From: an uncultured virus (IMG/VR IMGVR_UViG_3300042691_029418)
Taxonomy: Duplodnaviria; Heunggongvirae; Uroviricota; Caudoviricetes
IMG/VR virus record: IMGVR_UViG_3300042691_029418
Reading direction: 5' to 3' (one strand)
DNA: 20,000 bases
A program made the position numbers and the translations under genes. Below the pieces are notes generated by a model. It saw only the letters and a program-made list of their open reading frames with translations, did not search any database and was not told the DNA's origin. Shown one piece after another: positions 3,071 through 8,884 of this stretch. The stretch's first letter is position 1, and each line of letters opens with the position of its first letter.

Positions 3071-3241
3071 TCATCCCCCAGAGTGAAGAATGTCTAGCAT
3101 TTGTTGGTGATAGTGGTCTGCCTCACGAACCACATTTGCTGCCTCTGATACATCTTCAATCTCATACTGTGTCATCTCCAGAGAGTGAATCACATTAGAG
3201 AGAAGATCAGTCAGAGCATCAATCTTTTGTGCGTCAGTCAT
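3071..3241 (-). CDS. Small protein MTDAQKIDALTDLL... (56 aa)
   Basis: Manual translation; ATGA overlap with upstream gene. Confidence 0.7.
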   Translation of the reverse strand: MTDAQKIDALTDLLSNVIHSLEMTQYEIEDVSEAANVVREADHYHQQMLDILHSGG

Positions 3242-3438
3242 TTCAGAACGTGGCGATAATCAATGGATTTGATGCACCAACCTGTAGCAGCAGTGATTTC
3301 TTCTACGAGGTCATCTTCATCATCTGCCTCCCAAATCATACCGATAGTTTCATCGGTAATGTTACTGAACTGATGCTCGGGAAAGTCATCAGTAGCATCA
3401 TCAAAATCAAACTCGATTGCAGTAACTTGGAATTGCAT
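3238..3438 (-). CDS. Small acidic protein (66 aa)
   Basis: ORF track; WEADDEDDLVEEITAATGWCI. Confidence 0.8.
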   Translation of the reverse strand: MQFQVTAIEFDFDDATDDFPEHQFSNITDETIGMIWEADDEDDLVEEITAATGWCIKSIDYRHVLK

Positions 3439-3442
3439 TGTT

Positions 3443-3568
3443 TCAGTAATCGTAGTTTGCGTTCAGGTACTCATTGACATCGAACTTTTCATCTTTGAGT
3501 TCAGGAATGTCAAGGTCGAAAATCTCACCAGGCATGTCCTGAATCTCTTGCCACATTTCATCAAACAT
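3443..3568 (-). CDS. Small acidic protein MFDEMWQEIQDMPGEIFD... (41 aa)
   Basis: ORF 3443..3637 trimmed to ATG below promoter module 4. Confidence 0.7.
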   Translation of the reverse strand: MFDEMWQEIQDMPGEIFDLDIPELKDEKFDVNEYLNANYDY

Positions 3569-3593
3569 TGGTGAATCCCTCAGGAACGAATGT

Positions 3594-3651
3594 AATGTAG
3601 AACGGATTGGGGGGCATTGCAACCCCCCTTGTGCCACTTAGTTGACTGTCA
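3594..3651 (-). promoter_or_regulatory. Early promoter module 4
   Basis: TTGCAA-17-TACATT; GGGGGG/CCCCCC hairpin; TGCCA(3632)-N10-TGTCA. Confidence 0.8.
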
Positions 3652-3889
3652 CACCCTCAAACAGTTTGGTGTCAAACAGTGCCTCAACTTGACTCACGGG
3701 GCTAAGATTCACGAACATTTGTGCAGCGAGAACAGTTTTGTCACGAATATCTTCACACTCATAGTCATCAATTTCCTCGTTGACATAATTCTGATAATAT
3801 TTCGACTTCATACCAATCCGCACAAGATCACGGAGCAGACTCATCTCATCAGAATCCAGTTTGATCGTGTACTGAGTTTTGGTTTTCAT
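3638..3889 (-). CDS. Hypothetical early protein (83 aa)
   Basis: ORF track; fits between modules 5 and 4. Confidence 0.75.
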   Translation of the reverse strand: MKTKTQYTIKLDSDEMSLLRDLVRIGMKSKYYQNYVNEEIDDYECEDIRDKTVLAAQMFVNLSPVSQVEALFDTKLFEGVTVN

Positions 3890-3913
3890 GGTGTGTTTCA
3901 GGTGAACGAATGT

Positions 3914-3971
3914 AATGTAGAACGAATCAGGCAGGAAGTCTAGGGGGGTTGTGCCACTTCCCCAACTGTCA
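3914..3971 (-). promoter_or_regulatory. Early promoter module 5
   Basis: TAGACT-17-TACATT; TGCCA(3952)-N10-TGTCA. Confidence 0.8.
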
Positions 3972-4130
3972 CACAGAAGGGGTCACTTCGATTTCTTTAA
4001 TATTCAACCCACACAGTTGATTGTAAACACGATTGCTGATCAGATCACATGCACGTTTGGCACTCGATTTCTCATACCAAATCGTGACGCAGCCATCATA
4101 TGCCTCAACACGAATTCGATAGTTTTTCAT
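3969..4130 (-). CDS. Small protein MKNYRIRVEAYDGCVTIW... (53 aa)
   Basis: Manual translation; stop inside half-site of module 5. Confidence 0.7.
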   Translation of the reverse strand: MKNYRIRVEAYDGCVTIWYEKSSAKRACDLISNRVYNQLCGLNIKEIEVTPSV

Positions 4131-4153
4131 CGATTAATTGCGACGACAAAGGT

Positions 4154-4210
4154 ACAATACCACTACCAGGGGGTACGTATACCCCCTGTGTGCCACTTTC
4201 AGAATTGTCA
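4154..4210 (-). promoter_or_regulatory. Early promoter module 6
   Basis: -10 TATTGT; CAGGGGGT/ACCCCCTG hairpin; TGCCA(4191)-N10-TGTCA. Confidence 0.75.
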
Positions 4211-4411
4211 CACCTCATTCATAACTTTTAGACGACGCATAATATCATAAATTTCCATCTCATTCACGTCGATCTCATTCATATCAACGGGTGCGAATTC
4301 TTCGAGATTAATGTTACCATTGGCATAGATCGGAGCATAATACAACTCATCACCATCTTCCTGCGATAAAGTATAAACACAACCGTGATTGGTCGAAGTG
4401 ATAAAAATCAT
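4208..4411 (-). CDS. Small acidic protein (67 aa)
   Basis: ORF track; stop inside half-site of module 6. Confidence 0.75.
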   Translation of the reverse strand: MIFITSTNHGCVYTLSQEDGDELYYAPIYANGNINLEEFAPVDMNEIDVNEMEIYDIMRRLKVMNEV

Positions 4412-4432
4412 TTAAATTTCAGCAACGAATGT

Positions 4433-4490
4433 ACAATAACCCACATCCTGGCAGATATCAATCCCCTGTGTGCCACTAGTCCAACTGTCC
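4433..4490 (-). promoter_or_regulatory. Early promoter module 7
   Basis: TTGATA-17-TATTGT; TGCCA(4471)-N10-TGTCC. Confidence 0.75.
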
Positions 4491-4491
4491 T

Positions 4492-4546
4492 CATTCTCAA
4501 TAAAGAGAGTCTTATTGAGAATCAATAAGGATTATAATTGAGAATA
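4492..4546. repeat. Left arm of ~55-bp imperfect inverted repeat (three ATTCTCAA/TTGAGAAT sites)
   Basis: Matches reverse complement of 5232-5287 in identical blocks of 12, 13 and 9 nt. Confidence 0.8.
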
Positions 4547-4569
4547 CAACCAATTCTCAAACTGGCACA

Positions 4570-4725
4570 CTAATAGAATGGATCGTAGTCCTTGATGCTA
4601 ACATCGATATCTTCGTCACCTTGAAGATCTAGAAGTTCTCTCCAATTGAGATCTTCAACATCTAGATCATCATAACATGTGATATCTAATGTGACACGTA
4701 CATGACGTTTCTGTGCGGTTTGCAT
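4570..4725 (-). CDS. Small acidic protein MQTAQKRHVRVTLDITCYDDLDVED... (51 aa)
   Basis: Manual translation. Confidence 0.7.
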   Translation of the reverse strand: MQTAQKRHVRVTLDITCYDDLDVEDLNWRELLDLQGDEDIDVSIKDYDPFY

Positions 4726-4755
4726 GTGTATCTCGTGCGTGTGTGCTAGATTCTA

Positions 4756-4902
4756 TCATGCATAGTGACGATATGCAAGTGCTTCGTAATCTTGCCCATC
4801 TCGTGCATAATCCTCGTCTGATGCACCGTGCTCGTAGTATGCATCCTCATCGAGACTGTAATCGTTGCTGATTGTATAGTCGAGATCGTAATCGTCGTAC
4901 AT
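4756..4902 (-). CDS. Asp/Tyr-rich peptide MYDDYDLDYTISNDYSLDEDAYYE... (48 aa)
   Basis: Manual translation; below promoter at 4932-4960. Confidence 0.7.
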   Translation of the reverse strand: MYDDYDLDYTISNDYSLDEDAYYEHGASDEDYARDGQDYEALAYRHYA

Positions 4903-5080
4903 AACTCGTCGAGATGATTAATGACTTGTACAGTGTAGCATGATCTCGACGAGATTGCAAGCCTTATGATACATGTATCTCGTCGAGATGATAATGATAT
5001 ATATGAGATCTCGTCTATTATGTTAAGAATCGCTTATGAATATCGACGAGAAATGTGTGGATCTCGTGGCATCTCGTGCG
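4903..5080. repeat. Cluster of ATCTCG-N-CGAGAT palindromes and ATCTCGT half-sites
   Basis: Full sites 4903-4915 (1 mismatch), 4943-4955, 4977-4989; partial sites near 5008, 5043, 5061, 5071 (also 4730, 4798). Confidence 0.8.
4932..4960 (-). promoter_or_regulatory. Sigma70-type promoter
   Basis: TTGCAA-17-TACACT with a palindrome in the spacer. Confidence 0.65.
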
Positions 5081-5084
5081 GGGG

Positions 5085-5113
5085 TTGACATTGCGGACTT
5101 CGTGTGTTATAAT
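5085..5113 (+). promoter_or_regulatory. Perfect-consensus sigma70 promoter, plus strand
   Basis: TTGACA(5085-5090)-17-TATAAT(5108-5113) with extended -10 TG. Confidence 0.85.
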
Positions 5114-5140
5114 CCGCAGGCAAAGGTCACAAGTCCTAGA

Positions 5141-5217
5141 GGCATTTATAAGACATTTATAGGGCATTTATAAGACATTTATAGGGCATTTATAAGGCAT
5201 TTATAAAGCACTTAAAA
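5141..5217. repeat. 11-bp tandem repeat G[G/A]CATTTATA[A/G], six copies plus one degenerate
   Basis: Units start at 5141, 5152, 5163, 5174, 5185, 5196, (5207). Confidence 0.95.
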
Positions 5218-5231
5218 GACTTAAAGGAACC

Positions 5232-5287
5232 TATTCTCAACTATAACATACTATTGATTCTCAACTATTATCACCTTATTGAGAATG
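5232..5287. repeat. Right arm of ~55-bp imperfect inverted repeat
   Basis: ATTCTCAA at 5233 and 5257, TTGAGAAT at 5279; mirror of 4492-4546. Confidence 0.8.
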
Positions 5288-5336
5288 TTATGAAATGATA
5301 ATATATGTTTTTTAATATATTTTTTTAATTAAATCA

Positions 5337-5600
5337 TTACCATTTCTGTATTGGACAGTATGCAGCCTGGAATTTTACCTTATGTTCCAACCAACAACCA
5401 CAGTGCTTACAACGTTCCTGTCTCACACTATAATACTCACACTTCTTACAGGTATCAAGTCTTTCCTTCTGTAATTCCTTAGATGCATAAATCTGTGGAT
5501 CTGGAGTTGTGAGTACATCCTTTACAACTTCAAATGTAAACTTTGCAAGGTTCTTTCCTTGTTCTGTAATTGATGGAAATTGCTCTTGATTATCAGTCAT
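5337..5600 (-). CDS. Cys-rich putative metal-binding protein (DUF6171-like, 87 aa)
   Basis: CKKCEYY...CKHCGC...CPIQKW; ATGA overlap with upstream gene. Confidence 0.7.
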   Translation of the reverse strand: MTDNQEQFPSITEQGKNLAKFTFEVVKDVLTTPDPQIYASKELQKERLDTCKKCEYYSVRQERCKHCGCWLEHKVKFQAAYCPIQKW

Positions 5601-6193
5601 CGTCCTAGATAAAACCAACCTGTAATCACATACTTAGTTCCTTCCAATACTAATCCTCCACGGTGAGCATGAGTCATACCAGCAGGCCAGATCAGTAACT
5701 TACCTTTCTCTGGTTGTACTCTCTTCTTATAATACAGAAACTCAGTCTCTCCTCCCTTATAATCATCATTCAAATACAACATCCATACAAGTGCTCTGGC
5801 ACAATGTTCTAGTCCACTGTTCTCATCATGCCAGACATGATAACCACCACCAGCAGGAGTCTTTTGTACCTTTTGAGAGATCGAATACAATGGCACCTGT
5901 TTCATATGTCCGAAGACTTGACGATACTCTTCTAAGCAAGAGGACAAGACCTGATTTAGATGTTGTGAGGTATTGTTCTGAAATGACTGTTGCATATTGA
6001 CAAGATCAAGTGCCCAATCGAATCGTCCTGCATTGGAGTTCTCAAACTGATCATCCTCACAGAATACAGAATCAAGACTCTGATAATAATCAAAAGTCTT
6101 CATCACATCATAACAAAATTTAGAATCAACACTACAAGAGTATGATCCTATGAAGTCTTCGTATATACCTTTAAGTTCAGTCGTTTCCATCAA
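5597..6193 (-). CDS. 2OG-Fe(II) oxygenase (prolyl-4-hydroxylase-like)
   Basis: WHDE, YLNDDYKGGETEF, AHRG, KYVITGW. Confidence 0.9.
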   Translation of the reverse strand: MMETTELKGIYEDFIGSYSCSVDSKFCYDVMKTFDYYQSLDSVFCEDDQFENSNAGRFDWALDLVNMQQSFQNNTSQHLNQVLSSCLEEYRQVFGHMKQVPLYSISQKVQKTPAGGGYHVWHDENSGLEHCARALVWMLYLNDDYKGGETEFLYYKKRVQPEKGKLLIWPAGMTHAHRGGLVLEGTKYVITGWFYLGR

Positions 6194-6497
6194 TGTCTAG
6201 TTCTGGATATTTTGAAATGATCTTTTGTTTAAGATAGTCATAATACTCTTCATTCCATTGATCAGAGTTTGAGATCCACTTATCCAATGGACAATCACCC
6301 CATTGATCATGAATCTTATTTGTCAAATAGCACTGACAATACTTACATGCCTTGTGCTCTTGATCATAGTATTCACATGATTCACAAATCGACCAACGTT
6401 GTTGTTGACACTCTTCAGATGGTAGAAATCGTTTTCCCTTTGTTTCTTCTAGAAAGAATTCATCAATAAAATGAAAAATAAGTTGTGACTGTTTCAT
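6177..6497 (-). CDS. Cys-rich putative metal-binding protein, paralog of 5337-5600
   Basis: CESCEYY...CKYCQC...CPLDKW. Confidence 0.7.
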   Translation of the reverse strand: MKQSQLIFHFIDEFFLEETKGKRFLPSEECQQQRWSICESCEYYDQEHKACKYCQCYLTNKIHDQWGDCPLDKWISNSDQWNEEYYDYLKQKIISKYPELDIDGND

Positions 6498-6518
6498 GGT
6501 ACATTATAACACAGATGA

Positions 6519-7733
6519 TTATGATTTAGTGCCTCTGATGCGTTGTAAATGTCCTGTTCCGACATCACCAGAAAGAACTCTATACAGACGACCAGCTAAT
6601 GCCGCACCAGCACCTCCACCGGCACCAGCACTACCCCACTGTCCACCAGAGTTACCAGTGGCACCAGGATTACCATTCGAATAGACTCCATTGGGAGCAC
6701 AGTAATTGAAACCTGGTGAATTAGGAGCACCACCACCAGTACCAGCACTATTGAACTCTGCATCATTCAGTGGATAATTGGTGCTCCAGGAGCCACGATT
6801 GTTCCAGCCAGCACCTTGTCCAGGATTACCACCAAGACCAGCAGCACCACCACTGAGATTAGTATATGAGATTGCATAACATCCAAGATCCCAGTTGGTT
6901 GCACAGGCATATCCACTAAAATTATTTGGATTCCAACCATCTCCGGCACGATAACCACCACCACGACAACGAATTCTTGTATCGGTCGGATTCGCAGAGA
7001 TTACATATCCAGATGTATATCCAGGGGGAAGAGTAGCGGCACATTGGGCATTGGCAAGATGACCATAGAAATCTCTATTGTCACCGAAATAAACATTTGT
7101 CGCATAGGTTGTGGTGGCATAACAATTAATTGTGGGGCCAGTATTACCATCTGCACCACGGGAACCGACACCACCACCAGCCCAGATGCGTCCTGTATCA
7201 TTCACCACCACATCAATATTTCGGGATGCACCAGATCGTGTTGTTGTATTGTTCAGGTACAGTGCCGTTCCACCTGCGGTGTTTGAAACATCTCCACCTT
7301 CTCCATAAATCTGACCAGATACGTTCACTCTCAGATTATAGATTTCTGCATTCAATGTTGCGGCCGGAACAGTATTACTGGATGCAACGATGAGTCCATT
7401 GATTGCCAGATTCTTGATGACATTCTTATTCAGATTGCCACCCCAGACGGAACTGGATCCAAGATTTAGATTTGTATCACTACCAGATTGTGTTGCGAAG
7501 ATTTCTTTAACCGTTCCACGAAATGTTTGGGCACTCAGATTATTTTCAGATGATACATCAGAGTTCTCATCGGCATCGGGCACGACTGGACTTGTATCAT
7601 CCTGATTGGTATTTCTTCGATAGGTCGAAAATCTAACATCATTTGAATTGCCACCAAACGTTGTCTGTAGTGCTCTGGCACTGATTGTTCCCGTATTAAA
7701 ATATGTCGTGGCAGTGTACTGGGGTAAACTCAT
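6519..7733 (-). CDS. Gly-rich virion adhesin / tail-fibre tip protein, T-even gp38-like (404 aa)
   Basis: IYGEGG...AGGTAL...GRIWAGGG...GGQWGSAG...GAGAALAG...IRG pattern parallels gp38 polyglycine segments; late promoter upstream. Confidence 0.65.
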   Translation of the reverse strand: MSLPQYTATTYFNTGTISARALQTTFGGNSNDVRFSTYRRNTNQDDTSPVVPDADENSDVSSENNLSAQTFRGTVKEIFATQSGSDTNLNLGSSSVWGGNLNKNVIKNLAINGLIVASSNTVPAATLNAEIYNLRVNVSGQIYGEGGDVSNTAGGTALYLNNTTTRSGASRNIDVVVNDTGRIWAGGGVGSRGADGNTGPTINCYATTTYATNVYFGDNRDFYGHLANAQCAATLPPGYTSGYVISANPTDTRIRCRGGGYRAGDGWNPNNFSGYACATNWDLGCYAISYTNLSGGAAGLGGNPGQGAGWNNRGSWSTNYPLNDAEFNSAGTGGGAPNSPGFNYCAPNGVYSNGNPGATGNSGGQWGSAGAGGGAGAALAGRLYRVLSGDVGTGHLQRIRGTKS

Positions 7734-7758
7734 TACCGATGTATAACCTTATTTTTTG

Positions 7759-7766
7759 TATTTATT
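7759..7766 (-). promoter_or_regulatory. Late promoter AATAAATA
   Basis: 25 nt upstream of ATG 7733. Confidence 0.65.
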
Positions 7767-8262
7767 GTGGTGAATACTTGATTGCGACCGTAAATCGATG
7801 TTGATTCCGAAATGATGTGGCACGGTGCAGAATCATTCCATCAAAGACCACCATTCGATTTGGTTTAGGAATGATACCATAAATGTTCTCATCAATATAA
7901 AACTGAGTCTCTCCACCCTGTTGCACATCCCAGTCCAGATTTGGATAATACAGAAATGTCAGTCCTTCTCCATCAATATGATAATAGGGATTCTCACCTG
8001 GTACAAAACAATTAATGTACATTCGATACAGTTTCATCTGTCGAACCACATCCACCTTATCGGCAATCGTTTTGCGAAACAACTTATACACAAATTCCGT
8101 CTCTGGAATGTTGTGAATCATTCCAGTTACGGGTGTCTCTGGATTGTCCTGTTCACCATAGTGATAGGATGCACTCAGACAATATCGAAGTACAATTTCC
8201 TGTTCATTCTGAGTCAGAAACTGATCAATAAAATTAACTTCCATGTTGACCGTACTCTCCAT
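7762..8262 (-). CDS. 2OG-Fe(II) oxygenase (start may be 8244)
   Basis: YHID, GGETQF, LHRA, RFTVA. Confidence 0.9.
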   Translation of the reverse strand: MESTVNMEVNFIDQFLTQNEQEIVLRYCLSASYHYGEQDNPETPVTGMIHNIPETEFVYKLFRKTIADKVDVVRQMKLYRMYINCFVPGENPYYHIDGEGLTFLYYPNLDWDVQQGGETQFYIDENIYGIIPKPNRMVVFDGMILHRATSFRNQHRFTVAIKYSPQ

Positions 8263-8884
8263 ATTCTAAGACGTGCAGATTGAATGCGACAGTGATTCTT
8301 GGATCATTGGGTGTCGGTTGTGACTTTCTTACAAAATGATCCAGATAACTTGGAAACATAATCAGATCTCCTTCCCTTACACCAGGATGATATTTTGGTC
8401 CATAATGATTGGATTCCATCTCCAGAGAATGATGACGCAATGATTCCAGTGGATCAAGAAATGTCGTCGGTAGATGAATCTCTGAATTAAACTTTAGATA
8501 ATGAATACAAGAAAAATGAGAATCTTTTTGAAAGATATTACCACTCACATGATTGTGTATTTCCTGATATTCACCATCCACATAATAATTATACCAGATG
8601 TCAATGATTTCAAGTTTGCTGGGTTTATCAAAGAATCTGGAAACATATTCAATGTAATACTGAGTTGCCTTGCTATTTTCGGCAAACAAATTACCATTGA
8701 TTGAATTCAGATCAAATGACGTGTGTAACTTATCCGTCTCCCATCCGTCTGGAATCAGTGAACTCCTTTTTTGATATAGACTCTCTATCTTAGGAAGCAA
8801 TTCATCCTGAATGATCGGATTCTCTCTGATGTTGGTCTGAAAGATATGAATCGGAAAAAGTAACTTCTTATATGCTCTGCTCAT
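8234..8884 (-). CDS. Putative 2OG-Fe(II) oxygenase, TIGR02466-like
   Basis: WYN..QEIHNH, GDLIMFPSYLDHFV, RITVAFN. Confidence 0.85.
   Translation of the reverse strand: MSRAYKKLLFPIHIFQTNIRENPIIQDELLPKIESLYQKRSSLIPDGWETDKLHTSFDLNSINGNLFAENSKATQYYIEYVSRFFDKPSKLEIIDIWYNYYVDGEYQEIHNHVSGNIFQKDSHFSCIHYLKFNSEIHLPTTFLDPLESLRHHSLEMESNHYGPKYHPGVREGDLIMFPSYLDHFVRKSQPTPNDPRITVAFNLHVLEYGEYGQHGS

Follow-up and report, generated by a model that had tools for sequence, protein, structure and literature searches.

Fur operators are well known, and so is the use that phages make of the sites of host phosphate and nitrogen regulators: cyanophages carry PhoB boxes before pstS and phoA, and they carry NtcA sites. 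Iron limits cyanobacteria in many lakes and in large parts of the ocean. We analysed an element of about 800 bp (positions 4492-5287) in a stretch of 20,000 nucleotides from an uncultured virus of the Caudoviricetes (IMG/VR record IMGVR_UViG_3300042691_029418), which in its whole length is referred to below as the window. The element is bounded by two mirror-image arms. We give a probability of roughly 50% to the reading that these arms are operators for the Fur protein of the cyanobacterial host and that the iron state of the host may be read there. As with the PhoB and NtcA sites of cyanophages, the DNA site of a host nutrient sensor would then stand on phage promoters; here the sensor is the iron sensor, and what the sites flank is a control module that is non-coding rather than an auxiliary metabolic gene. 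A full-text search, in which papers were judged by their title and the start of the abstract, found none on Fur boxes or host iron-regulator sites in cyanophages.

The systems closest to this module include the following. For Anabaena PCC 7120, the consensus of FurA is given as AAATAAATTCTCAATAAAT and the top-ranked site of the furA promoter as ATAAATATTCTCAATAAGC (PMC4005646). For Synechocystis, a Fur site 163-186 nt downstream of the isiA start is described which acts as a roadblock and whose loss de-represses, and the same source calls bidirectional promoters a hallmark of Fur control (PMC8634477). The minimal origins oriF and oriG of phage T4 are described as a promoter plus an AT-rich unwinding element, and oriE as an origin with iterons that depends on an early promoter (PMC3016281). 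The arms share with cyanobacterial Fur operators an identical ATTCTCAATAA core, the tail-to-tail dyad found before fur, several adjoining sites and a position on or just downstream of what are here predicted promoters. They differ in that they lie in a lytic phage, where two arrays in mirror image, separated by about 700 bp, surround a control module, and in a spacer of N8 instead of N7. The isiA roadblock as described in PMC8634477 likewise has Fur sites more than 100 nt downstream of a strong promoter, whereas the phage transcript is predicted to be non-coding and antisense to its neighbours.

The window belongs to a freshwater T4-like cyanophage whose nearest named phage is S-SRM01. Only cyanophages matched the region 4300-5500 in a sequence search. 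The freshwater Synechococcus phage S-SRM01 (Kyanoviridae) matches window positions 4613-5345 at 75%, the match of phage DSL-LC03 is limited to 5233-5325, and that of S-SKS1 covers the first small gene of the element. The nearest record is a viral fragment of 7.3 kb (G001), which is 99-100% identical to the window. A term search of the main text of the S-SRM01 paper (PMC8557907) found it silent on the region of the module.

The boxes in and beside the arms are arranged as follows.

4492-4546, no strand assigned: left arm, consisting of the dyad ATTCTCAATAA-N8-TTATTGAGAAT (4493-4522) and a third box at 4538-4545
4553-4560, minus strand: fourth TTGAGAAT box, lying in the spacer of the early-promoter dyad and supplying the -35-like TTGAGA of a minus-strand promoter
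5232-5287, no strand assigned: right arm, with boxes at 5233 and 5257 and the dyad at 5257-5286

The word TTGAGAAT occurs nine times in the 20-kb window, where 2.15 copies are expected, and none of 200 dinucleotide-preserving shuffles reached nine. Seven of the nine copies sit in the two mirror-image arms (4492-4560 and 5232-5287), at positions 4493(-), 4515(+), 4538(+), 4553(-), 5233(-), 5257(-) and 5279(+). The box at 4553 was missing from the list in the initial annotation, which had described the ends of the element as mirror-image inverted repeats. The sequence reads accordingly, and a repeat search pairs both arms (4492-4527 with 5252-5287, 36 nt and 81% complementary; 4532-4546 with 5232-5246, 15 nt and 93%). 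The same search found a perfect local dyad of 4493-4503 with 4512-4522, and the true unit of the arms is the dyad ATTCTCAATAA-N8-TTATTGAGAAT, perfect at the left (4493-4522). The spacing of the boxes is 22-24 bp. The half-sites are placed tail-to-tail with 14 nt between the 8-mers, and at 4538-4560 they are placed head-to-head with 7 nt. Exactly three copies of the 11-mer ATTCTCAATAA are present in the window, all within the arms, the exact core of the left arm being at 4493 and 4512. The 240-kb genome of S-SRM01 contains exactly two copies, both at the module, and the right arm is conserved in S-SRM01 as well as in DSL-LC03.

What the initial annotation overlooked is the match of these boxes to the operator of the host iron repressor Fur. 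The core ATTCTCAATAA corresponds to positions 7-17 of the FurA consensus as given in PMC4005646. A scan of prokaryotes, with one genome per species, for TTCTCAATAA-N6-10-TTATTGAGAA returned at least 120 stretches, many of them cyanobacterial. From 80 loci with flanking sequence, 68 open reading frames (ORFs) that start less than 500 nt from the dyad and point away from it were scanned for protein families. Four of them, from four cyanobacterial genera (L176, L188, L208 and L216), are FUR-family genes, and the dyad lies 3-66 nt before these ORFs; the remainder comprises two cation-efflux genes, three Mob_Pre relaxases and for the most part unrelated genes. An independent check used five other small cyanobacterial genomes, in which Pfam served to locate the fur genes. 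With one mismatch allowed, the core TTCTCAATA was found at most 220 nt upstream of the best Fur homologue in four of the five, with five matches compared to a background of 0.051 per 220 nt, which is an enrichment of about 20-fold. In one of the checked genomes (65% GC) the dyad ends in TTGAGAATCAAT, the word of the middle box of the phage. The host fur promoters have the same tail-to-tail layout, with N7 compared to N8 in the phage. Because of the match to the FurA core, the dyad before fur genes and the enrichment of the core before fur, the arms are read as putative operators of host Fur. A FUR-family gene was not found in the three related complete genomes of S-SRM01, DSL-LC03 and P-SSM2; the reader would therefore be a host protein, and a phage-encoded Fur was rejected on the basis of these three genomes. 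A Zur box was rejected as well, since PMC9337993 gives another sequence for the Zur box of cyanobacteria.

Alternatively, the boxes could be operators of a phage-encoded regulator in an ordinary early control region, with a coincidental likeness to Fur boxes. The classical Fur box has a head-to-head 7-1-7 arrangement (or is an array of hexamers), and both the spacing and the orientation of the half-sites in the arms differ from it. The exact dyad was not found in the sampled cyanobacterial genomes listed at 3 Mb or less, and a cluster of palindromes within the element indicates that at least one other DNA-binding protein acts here. The idea does not account for the same 10+10-nt dyad before fur genes of four cyanobacterial genera or for the roughly 20-fold enrichment of the core before fur in four of five further genomes. 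Moreover, the proteins encoded in the module match nothing known to bind DNA (for the second one this refers to Pfam only), and the dyad is also present on Nostoc plasmids, so that a cellular reader must exist. We consider a phage-encoded regulator unlikely and retain host Fur as the preferred reader.

Nostoc plasmids of 28-58 kb carry the same dyad repeatedly in a stretch with few genes, at a distance of about 426 bp and each time with TATAAT directly after it; these are the best-covering matches among 21 Nostoc plasmid records. The plasmid dyads (L177 900-2000; L293, which is pNPM5, 3224-6650) adjoin genes for Mob_Pre, DUF3991 and a conserved acidic protein. Rfam, at an E value of 0.01 or better, gave no match in seven Nostoc and other loci. 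The plasmid dyads may be Fur-controlled plasmid promoters or small RNAs.

The features enclosed by the arms or bordering them are listed below.

4468-4491, minus strand: next early-promoter dyad, TGTGCCACT-N6-ACTGTCC, which abuts the outer end of the left arm and heads the gene at 4208-4411
4531-4570, minus strand: leftward early-type promoter, with an upstream dyad (4545-4570) followed by TTGAGA-18-TATAAT (4560 to 4531), matching at 11 of 12 positions
4570-4725, minus strand: small acidic gene 1, 51 aa, matching phrog_12516 (E 3.7e-16)
4756-4902, minus strand: small acidic gene 2, 48 aa, tyrosine-rich, no Pfam family
4846-5051, no strand assigned: cluster of the palindrome CTCGWCGAGA(T), holding nine of the ten matches in the window (one mismatch allowed) where 0.96 is expected
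4960 to 4932, minus strand: weak leftward promoter, TTGCAA-17-TACACT, with a palindrome in the spacer; read by eye and below the threshold of the promoter scan
5085-5113, plus strand: consensus sigma-70-type promoter, TTGACA-17-TATAAT with TG, matching at 12 of 12 positions and facing against all neighbouring genes
5119-5231, no strand assigned: AT-rich 11-bp array of the units CATTTATAAGA and CATTTATAGGG, with eight copies spaced by 11 nt
5288-5335, no strand assigned: AT-rich block next to the outer end of the right arm, containing two T runs; AT-richness read by eye, conserved in relatives

The small ORFs, divergent promoters, palindrome cluster and 11-bp array which had been reported inside the element are thus each present. 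The left boxes overlap the minus-strand promoter match (11/12), whose TATAAT is at 4536-4531: the left Fur dyad lies at about +1 to +30 of the leftward early transcript, counted from its inferred start, and two further left boxes overlap the -35 region and the upstream dyad of the early promoter. This layout is, as predicted from the sequence, a repression geometry. The right boxes lie downstream of the plus-strand match (12/12), at positions of about +113 to +166 in the predicted rightward transcript. No real-looking ORF in the ORF list of the window starts downstream of this promoter.

The boxes, their conservation in single copy, their identity with the cyanobacterial Fur-box core, the recurrence of the dyad at host fur genes and the geometry relative to the promoter matches are observed; Fur binding, the transcript starts and all regulatory consequences we infer. 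In iron-replete cells, iron-loaded host Fur would sit on both arms. At the left it would cover the early promoter from -35 to +30 and repress it. At the right, 113-166 nt downstream of the backward promoter at 5085-5113, it would form a roadblock at which the transcript is stopped, and it would also cover a weak leftward promoter-like site. When iron is scarce, Fur would leave, the early promoter would fire, and the non-coding transcript would read into the AT-rich block and on, antisense, into the upstream genes, which in the window include three 2OG-Fe(II) oxygenases. An antisense transcript reaching genes for iron enzymes would suggest an iron-sparing logic. More speculatively, the mirror symmetry would suit a loop in which the DNA folds back and the Fur proteins of the two arms pair with each other. 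If host Fur does bind the arms, a lytic T4-like phage senses the iron status of its host at a conserved, single-copy control region, an idea that could be tested directly by using purified Fur and by comparing infections at two levels of iron.

The dyads might also act as RNA hairpins, the right one as a terminator for the rightward transcript and the left one as a stabiliser of a 5' end. A fold of -14.2 kcal/mol (z -3.0) is obtained for the left dyad, and T runs follow the right arm. However, the right dyad folds weakly (centroid -5.8 kcal/mol, z -0.7), the first T run begins about 24 nt past it, and the stems are invariant, with no compensatory change among 25 unique right and 27 unique left arms. 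Furthermore, the same sequence stands at host fur promoters, and no Rfam family matched the window. Roles of the dyads at the RNA level are very unlikely because of the weak fold on the right, the lack of co-variation and the distance of about 24 nt to the T runs.

Conservation of the module was analysed in relatives. A scan of IMG/VR for the dyad returned at least 141 stretches, nearly all with identical spacing, and from these a module set was drawn which consists of the window and 28 further viral loci, among the matches listed, made non-redundant by a prefix test. In all 29 the two dyads are 670-850 bp apart in mirror orientation. The layout is constant. It runs from the left arm through two small genes, four to seven palindromes, often a leftward TTGACA promoter, and a G-rich stretch to the rightward promoter, whose spacer is conserved, and from there through an AT-rich array of variable length to the right arm and an AT-rich block that contains T runs. 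Among 25 unique right and 27 unique left arms, the outer box TTATTGAGAAT does not vary, the inner ATTGATTCTCAATAA is nearly invariant in right arms and well kept in left arms, and the 8-nt spacer of the dyad is free to vary. The expectation in the initial annotation that the boxes are kept and the spacers diverge, as in protein-binding arrays under selection, agrees with this pattern, and the comparison with related phages which it proposed found the arms conserved. The complete genomes of S-SRM01 and DSL-LC03 have the dyad at one locus only.

The initial annotation had also considered an invertible DNA switch, with the arms as crossover sites. Site-specific inversion switches such as Hin, Gin, Cin and fim have inverted repeats around a promoter-bearing segment, and the arms are indeed inverted repeats about 700 bp apart whose inversion would re-aim the consensus promoter. 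They differ from these switches in several respects. No recombinase or transposase family was found among the 33 ORFs of the window that were scanned, as the initial annotation had already noted from the sequence, and the arms are arrays of sites whose spacers are unrelated and whose likeness over 36 nt is just 81%. Collinearity with the window holds for each of the 28 related loci, and a flipped interior was found in none of these listed matches. In 17 of the 28, one unbroken blastn match starts 25 nt or more beyond the left arm and continues through it into the interior, and the genes have one orientation in 29 of 29 modules. This single orientation in every relative, seen in assemblies in which minority orientations are invisible, leaves the switch as the least probable of the explanations, with hardly any weight. 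A miniature inverted-repeat transposable element or other transposon was rejected: there is one locus per complete genome, no target-site duplication, and the bases outside the arms are unrelated.

Several observations weigh against host Fur as the reader of the arms. The likeness to the FurA consensus is limited to a core of 11-12 nt and does not extend to the AT-rich flanks of the 19-mer, and a search with the 19-mer consensus, allowing up to five mismatches, fails to pick out the arms in AT-rich phage DNA. The half-sites are laid out tail-to-tail, which differs from the classical 7-1-7 box. Of 401 genomes sampled from the cyanobacterial class, just 13 were found to have the exact dyad, none of them listed at 3 Mb or less, and the comparison covers the Anabaena consensus and cyanobacteria sampled without regard to the phages' hosts. 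No box was found just upstream of the flavodoxin gene L430, one of two matches in five small genomes. Within the element, the two enclosed genes have promoters of their own that lack Fur boxes. Phage P-SSM2 retains the core of the rightward promoter without Fur boxes, and the boxes are therefore an optional part of the module. Finally, genes for iron-dependent enzymes lie to the right of the module in a minority of relatives only: among 36 ORFs scanned from the right flanks of relatives, five encode DUF6171 and two a 2OG-Fe(II) oxygenase.

A different use of Fur binding would be a decoy. The multiplying phage genome, with seven boxes per copy, would draw Fur off the host chromosome and thereby switch on iron uptake by the host, feeding the iron enzymes of the phage. 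Seven boxes within 800 bp and the three 2OG-Fe(II) oxygenases among the neighbouring genes would fit. Such a decoy, however, needs no mirror symmetry, no fixed positions relative to promoters and no single locus, and seven sites per genome copy are few. We therefore regard the decoy as improbable and prefer the arms as operators through which host Fur would control transcription.

The module extends beyond the lineage of the window. The core of the rightward promoter (-10 TACGCT followed by CGCTAA) is common to the marine phages P-SSM2 and P-SSM5 and to one marine single-cell virus record. A scan of IMG/VR for this core returned at least 120 stretches; 21 did not have the length required, and 92 form a non-redundant set in which 300 nt or more follow the core. 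The 450 nt downstream of the core were then scored for at least two Fur half-boxes or at least two exact copies of TTTTCCACA, which we take to be the cyanobacterial DnaA box. Among the matches listed, 27 of the 92 relatives have Fur boxes and 15 have TTTTCCACA; the two never occur together, and 50 relatives lack both. The type of box in this stretch therefore differs between lineages, and in our reading it would be an exchangeable slot for sites of host DNA-binding proteins. Most of the 18 loci that were read then carry a similar AT-rich block. The relatives bearing TTTTCCACA share the promoter core with P-SSM2 and resemble the window lineage in having a backward promoter, repeats, boxes for a host factor and the AT block; the window lineage differs in having Fur boxes in the slot and a second, mirror-image set on the far side. 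The content of the slot (Fur, DnaA or neither) offers a comparative handle on the function of the module.

The Fur right arm is present in phage DSL-LC03, whose 173-kb genome contains ten exact TTTTCCACA sites; seven of these flank the module (L006 2680-2750 and 3100-3135; record 80123-80579), with none in a reversed-pattern control. Exact TTTTCCACA was not found in the window, where matches with one mismatch are at the level of chance (9 compared to 10.9 expected). In the marine record AG-345-L05 the boxes are direct, as four TATTGAGAA repeats; elsewhere they are mostly inverted. In the marine loci L331, L335, L347, L357, L364 and L368, GTATCA-N2-GATAC stands right after the AT-rich block. 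It is of the type GTA-N8-TAC, presumably the NtcA site pattern, and may be a further host-regulator site in the module.

These data also bear on the proposal, made in the initial annotation, that the element is a replication origin. The transcript from the backward promoter would serve as a primer or form an R-loop on entering the AT-rich repeats and block, and the boxes would be iteron-like initiator or architectural sites. The module is present in single copy per genome, and a strong antisense promoter without an ORF, followed by an AT-rich array and block, is conserved from freshwater to marine phages. The boxes are 22-24 bp apart, and one marine relative has the four direct TATTGAGAA repeats. 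Seven of the ten TTTTCCACA sites of DSL-LC03 surround the module, and in 15 of the 92 listed relatives such sites lie downstream of the promoter. In its anatomy the module resembles T4 oriF, oriG and oriE as described in PMC3016281: the AT-rich array and then the AT-rich block come after the promoter at 5085-5113, which fits the layout of promoter and unwinding element in oriF and oriG, and the iteron-like repeats, the small genes beside them and the dependence on an early-type promoter are further likenesses. There is, in contrast, no sequence likeness to these origins. The AT-rich block at 5288-5335 is a candidate unwinding element, or alternatively a region with a late promoter or terminator. 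We know of no T4 origin that carries boxes of a host regulator.

Other results do not favour an origin. In S-SRM01 and DSL-LC03 the cumulative GC skew runs monotonically past the module without turning there, and the skew in the window, in which nearly all genes are on one strand, has no turning point; the skew is uninformative either way. No initiator gene adjoins the element, and no replication-initiator family was found among the neighbouring ORFs. The enclosed proteins match no Pfam family, the first of them matches no solved sequence or structure, and 50 of the 92 listed relatives have neither type of box. The AT block could instead belong to a late promoter or a terminator. Iteron-type origins such as lambda ori, R6K and plasmid oriV have direct repeats bound by an initiator encoded beside them; the module does not fit this type, as the boxes are mostly inverted and the neighbouring ORFs lack a replication-initiator family. 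Overall an origin is a possibility that we hold tentatively, and the module is the best candidate for the unmapped replication start of this phage family. An origin can coexist with Fur binding, in which case it would be gated by the state of the host. Fur on the arms would close the 750-bp region into a loop and stop the origin transcript, iron shortage would free this transcript to reach the AT-rich block and prime or open the origin, the sister lineages with DnaA boxes would read the replication state, and the interchangeable cassettes would tune DNA synthesis. This combined scheme is doubtful, with somewhat less credit than a phage-encoded regulator. Operators for host Fur remain the reading that we prefer for the arms themselves.

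Both small ORFs enclosed by the arms are genes. They are intact in 29 of 29 modules and lie on one strand relative to the arms. An alignment of gene 1 has 13 invariant columns; in gene 2 a variable middle part alters the length and the frame is kept. Coding sequence thus takes up about 300 of the 800 bp, which means that the element is more than a non-coding landmark. The AlphaFold model of gene 1 has a pLDDT (predicted local distance difference test) of 81 and almost no secondary structure, with no Foldseek match and no sequence match in PDB, and the profile scan of the window gave no Pfam family for it. For gene 2, no Pfam family was found in any of 24 members. The fragment G001 has a deletion of 89 bp relative to the window (4813-4901) between two CTCGTC repeats, which removes the start and about 30 codons of the second small gene. 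Because G001 lacks this start, the gene looks dispensable in at least one variant. A part of the acidic sequence of the second small gene, DLDE, is encoded by the CTCGWCGAGA(T) repeats.

These operator-like palindromes are a second class of conserved site. In S-SRM01 all 15 strand-hits of the palindrome lie in three clusters within 5.5 kb (record 85570-85730, 88165-88252 and 90907-91006) and none elsewhere in 240 kb. At the position of the weak leftward promoter of the window, relatives have TTGACA-palindrome-TATAAT. The upstream dyad of the early promoter (4545-4570) is present in the window and in relatives, and the rightward promoter has a homologue in relatives and in P-SSM2. The 11-bp array is variable among relatives in both length and sequence; as RNA it would fold into one long hairpin (-24.2 kcal/mol, z -4.2). 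The minus strand of 5141-5231 reads TATAAATG every 11 bp, a word which we take to be one base off the T4 late-promoter word.

Homing endonucleases appear to insert preferentially at the right border of the module. Six related contigs have, immediately beyond the right arm and on the opposite strand, an ORF that reads, by its sequence, like a GIY-YIG homing endonuclease (L007:598-1503, L011:1644-2435, L022:2466-3029, L062:1-750, L076:2429-3028 and L080:1-588) and that could be expressed from the backward promoter. At this border S-SRM01 encodes an HNH endonuclease (L005 3627-4208).

Across the window, Rfam at gathering thresholds gave no match and ARAGORN found no gene. The ORFs with a family match are mostly on the minus strand and many are small; among the matches to Pfam and PHROG are three 2OG-Fe(II) oxygenases, two DUF6171 proteins, DUF6267 and Kyanoviridae Gp96. 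To the right of the module, 5337-8884 holds the two cysteine-rich DUF6171 proteins, the three 2OG-Fe(II) oxygenases and a Gly/Asn-rich protein of 404 aa. Rightward from the right arm the order is DUF6171, 2OG-Fe(II) oxygenase, DUF6171, the 404-aa protein and two 2OG-Fe(II) oxygenases. This region is a cluster of iron-dependent enzymes adjoining the arm with the Fur-like boxes. A further dyad, GGGG..TGTGCCACT-N6-ACTGTCACAC, stands at the head of small gene cassettes on the minus strand, at 899-922, 1661-1684, 3629-3652, 3949-3972, 4188-4211, 4468-4491, 13177 and 14271.

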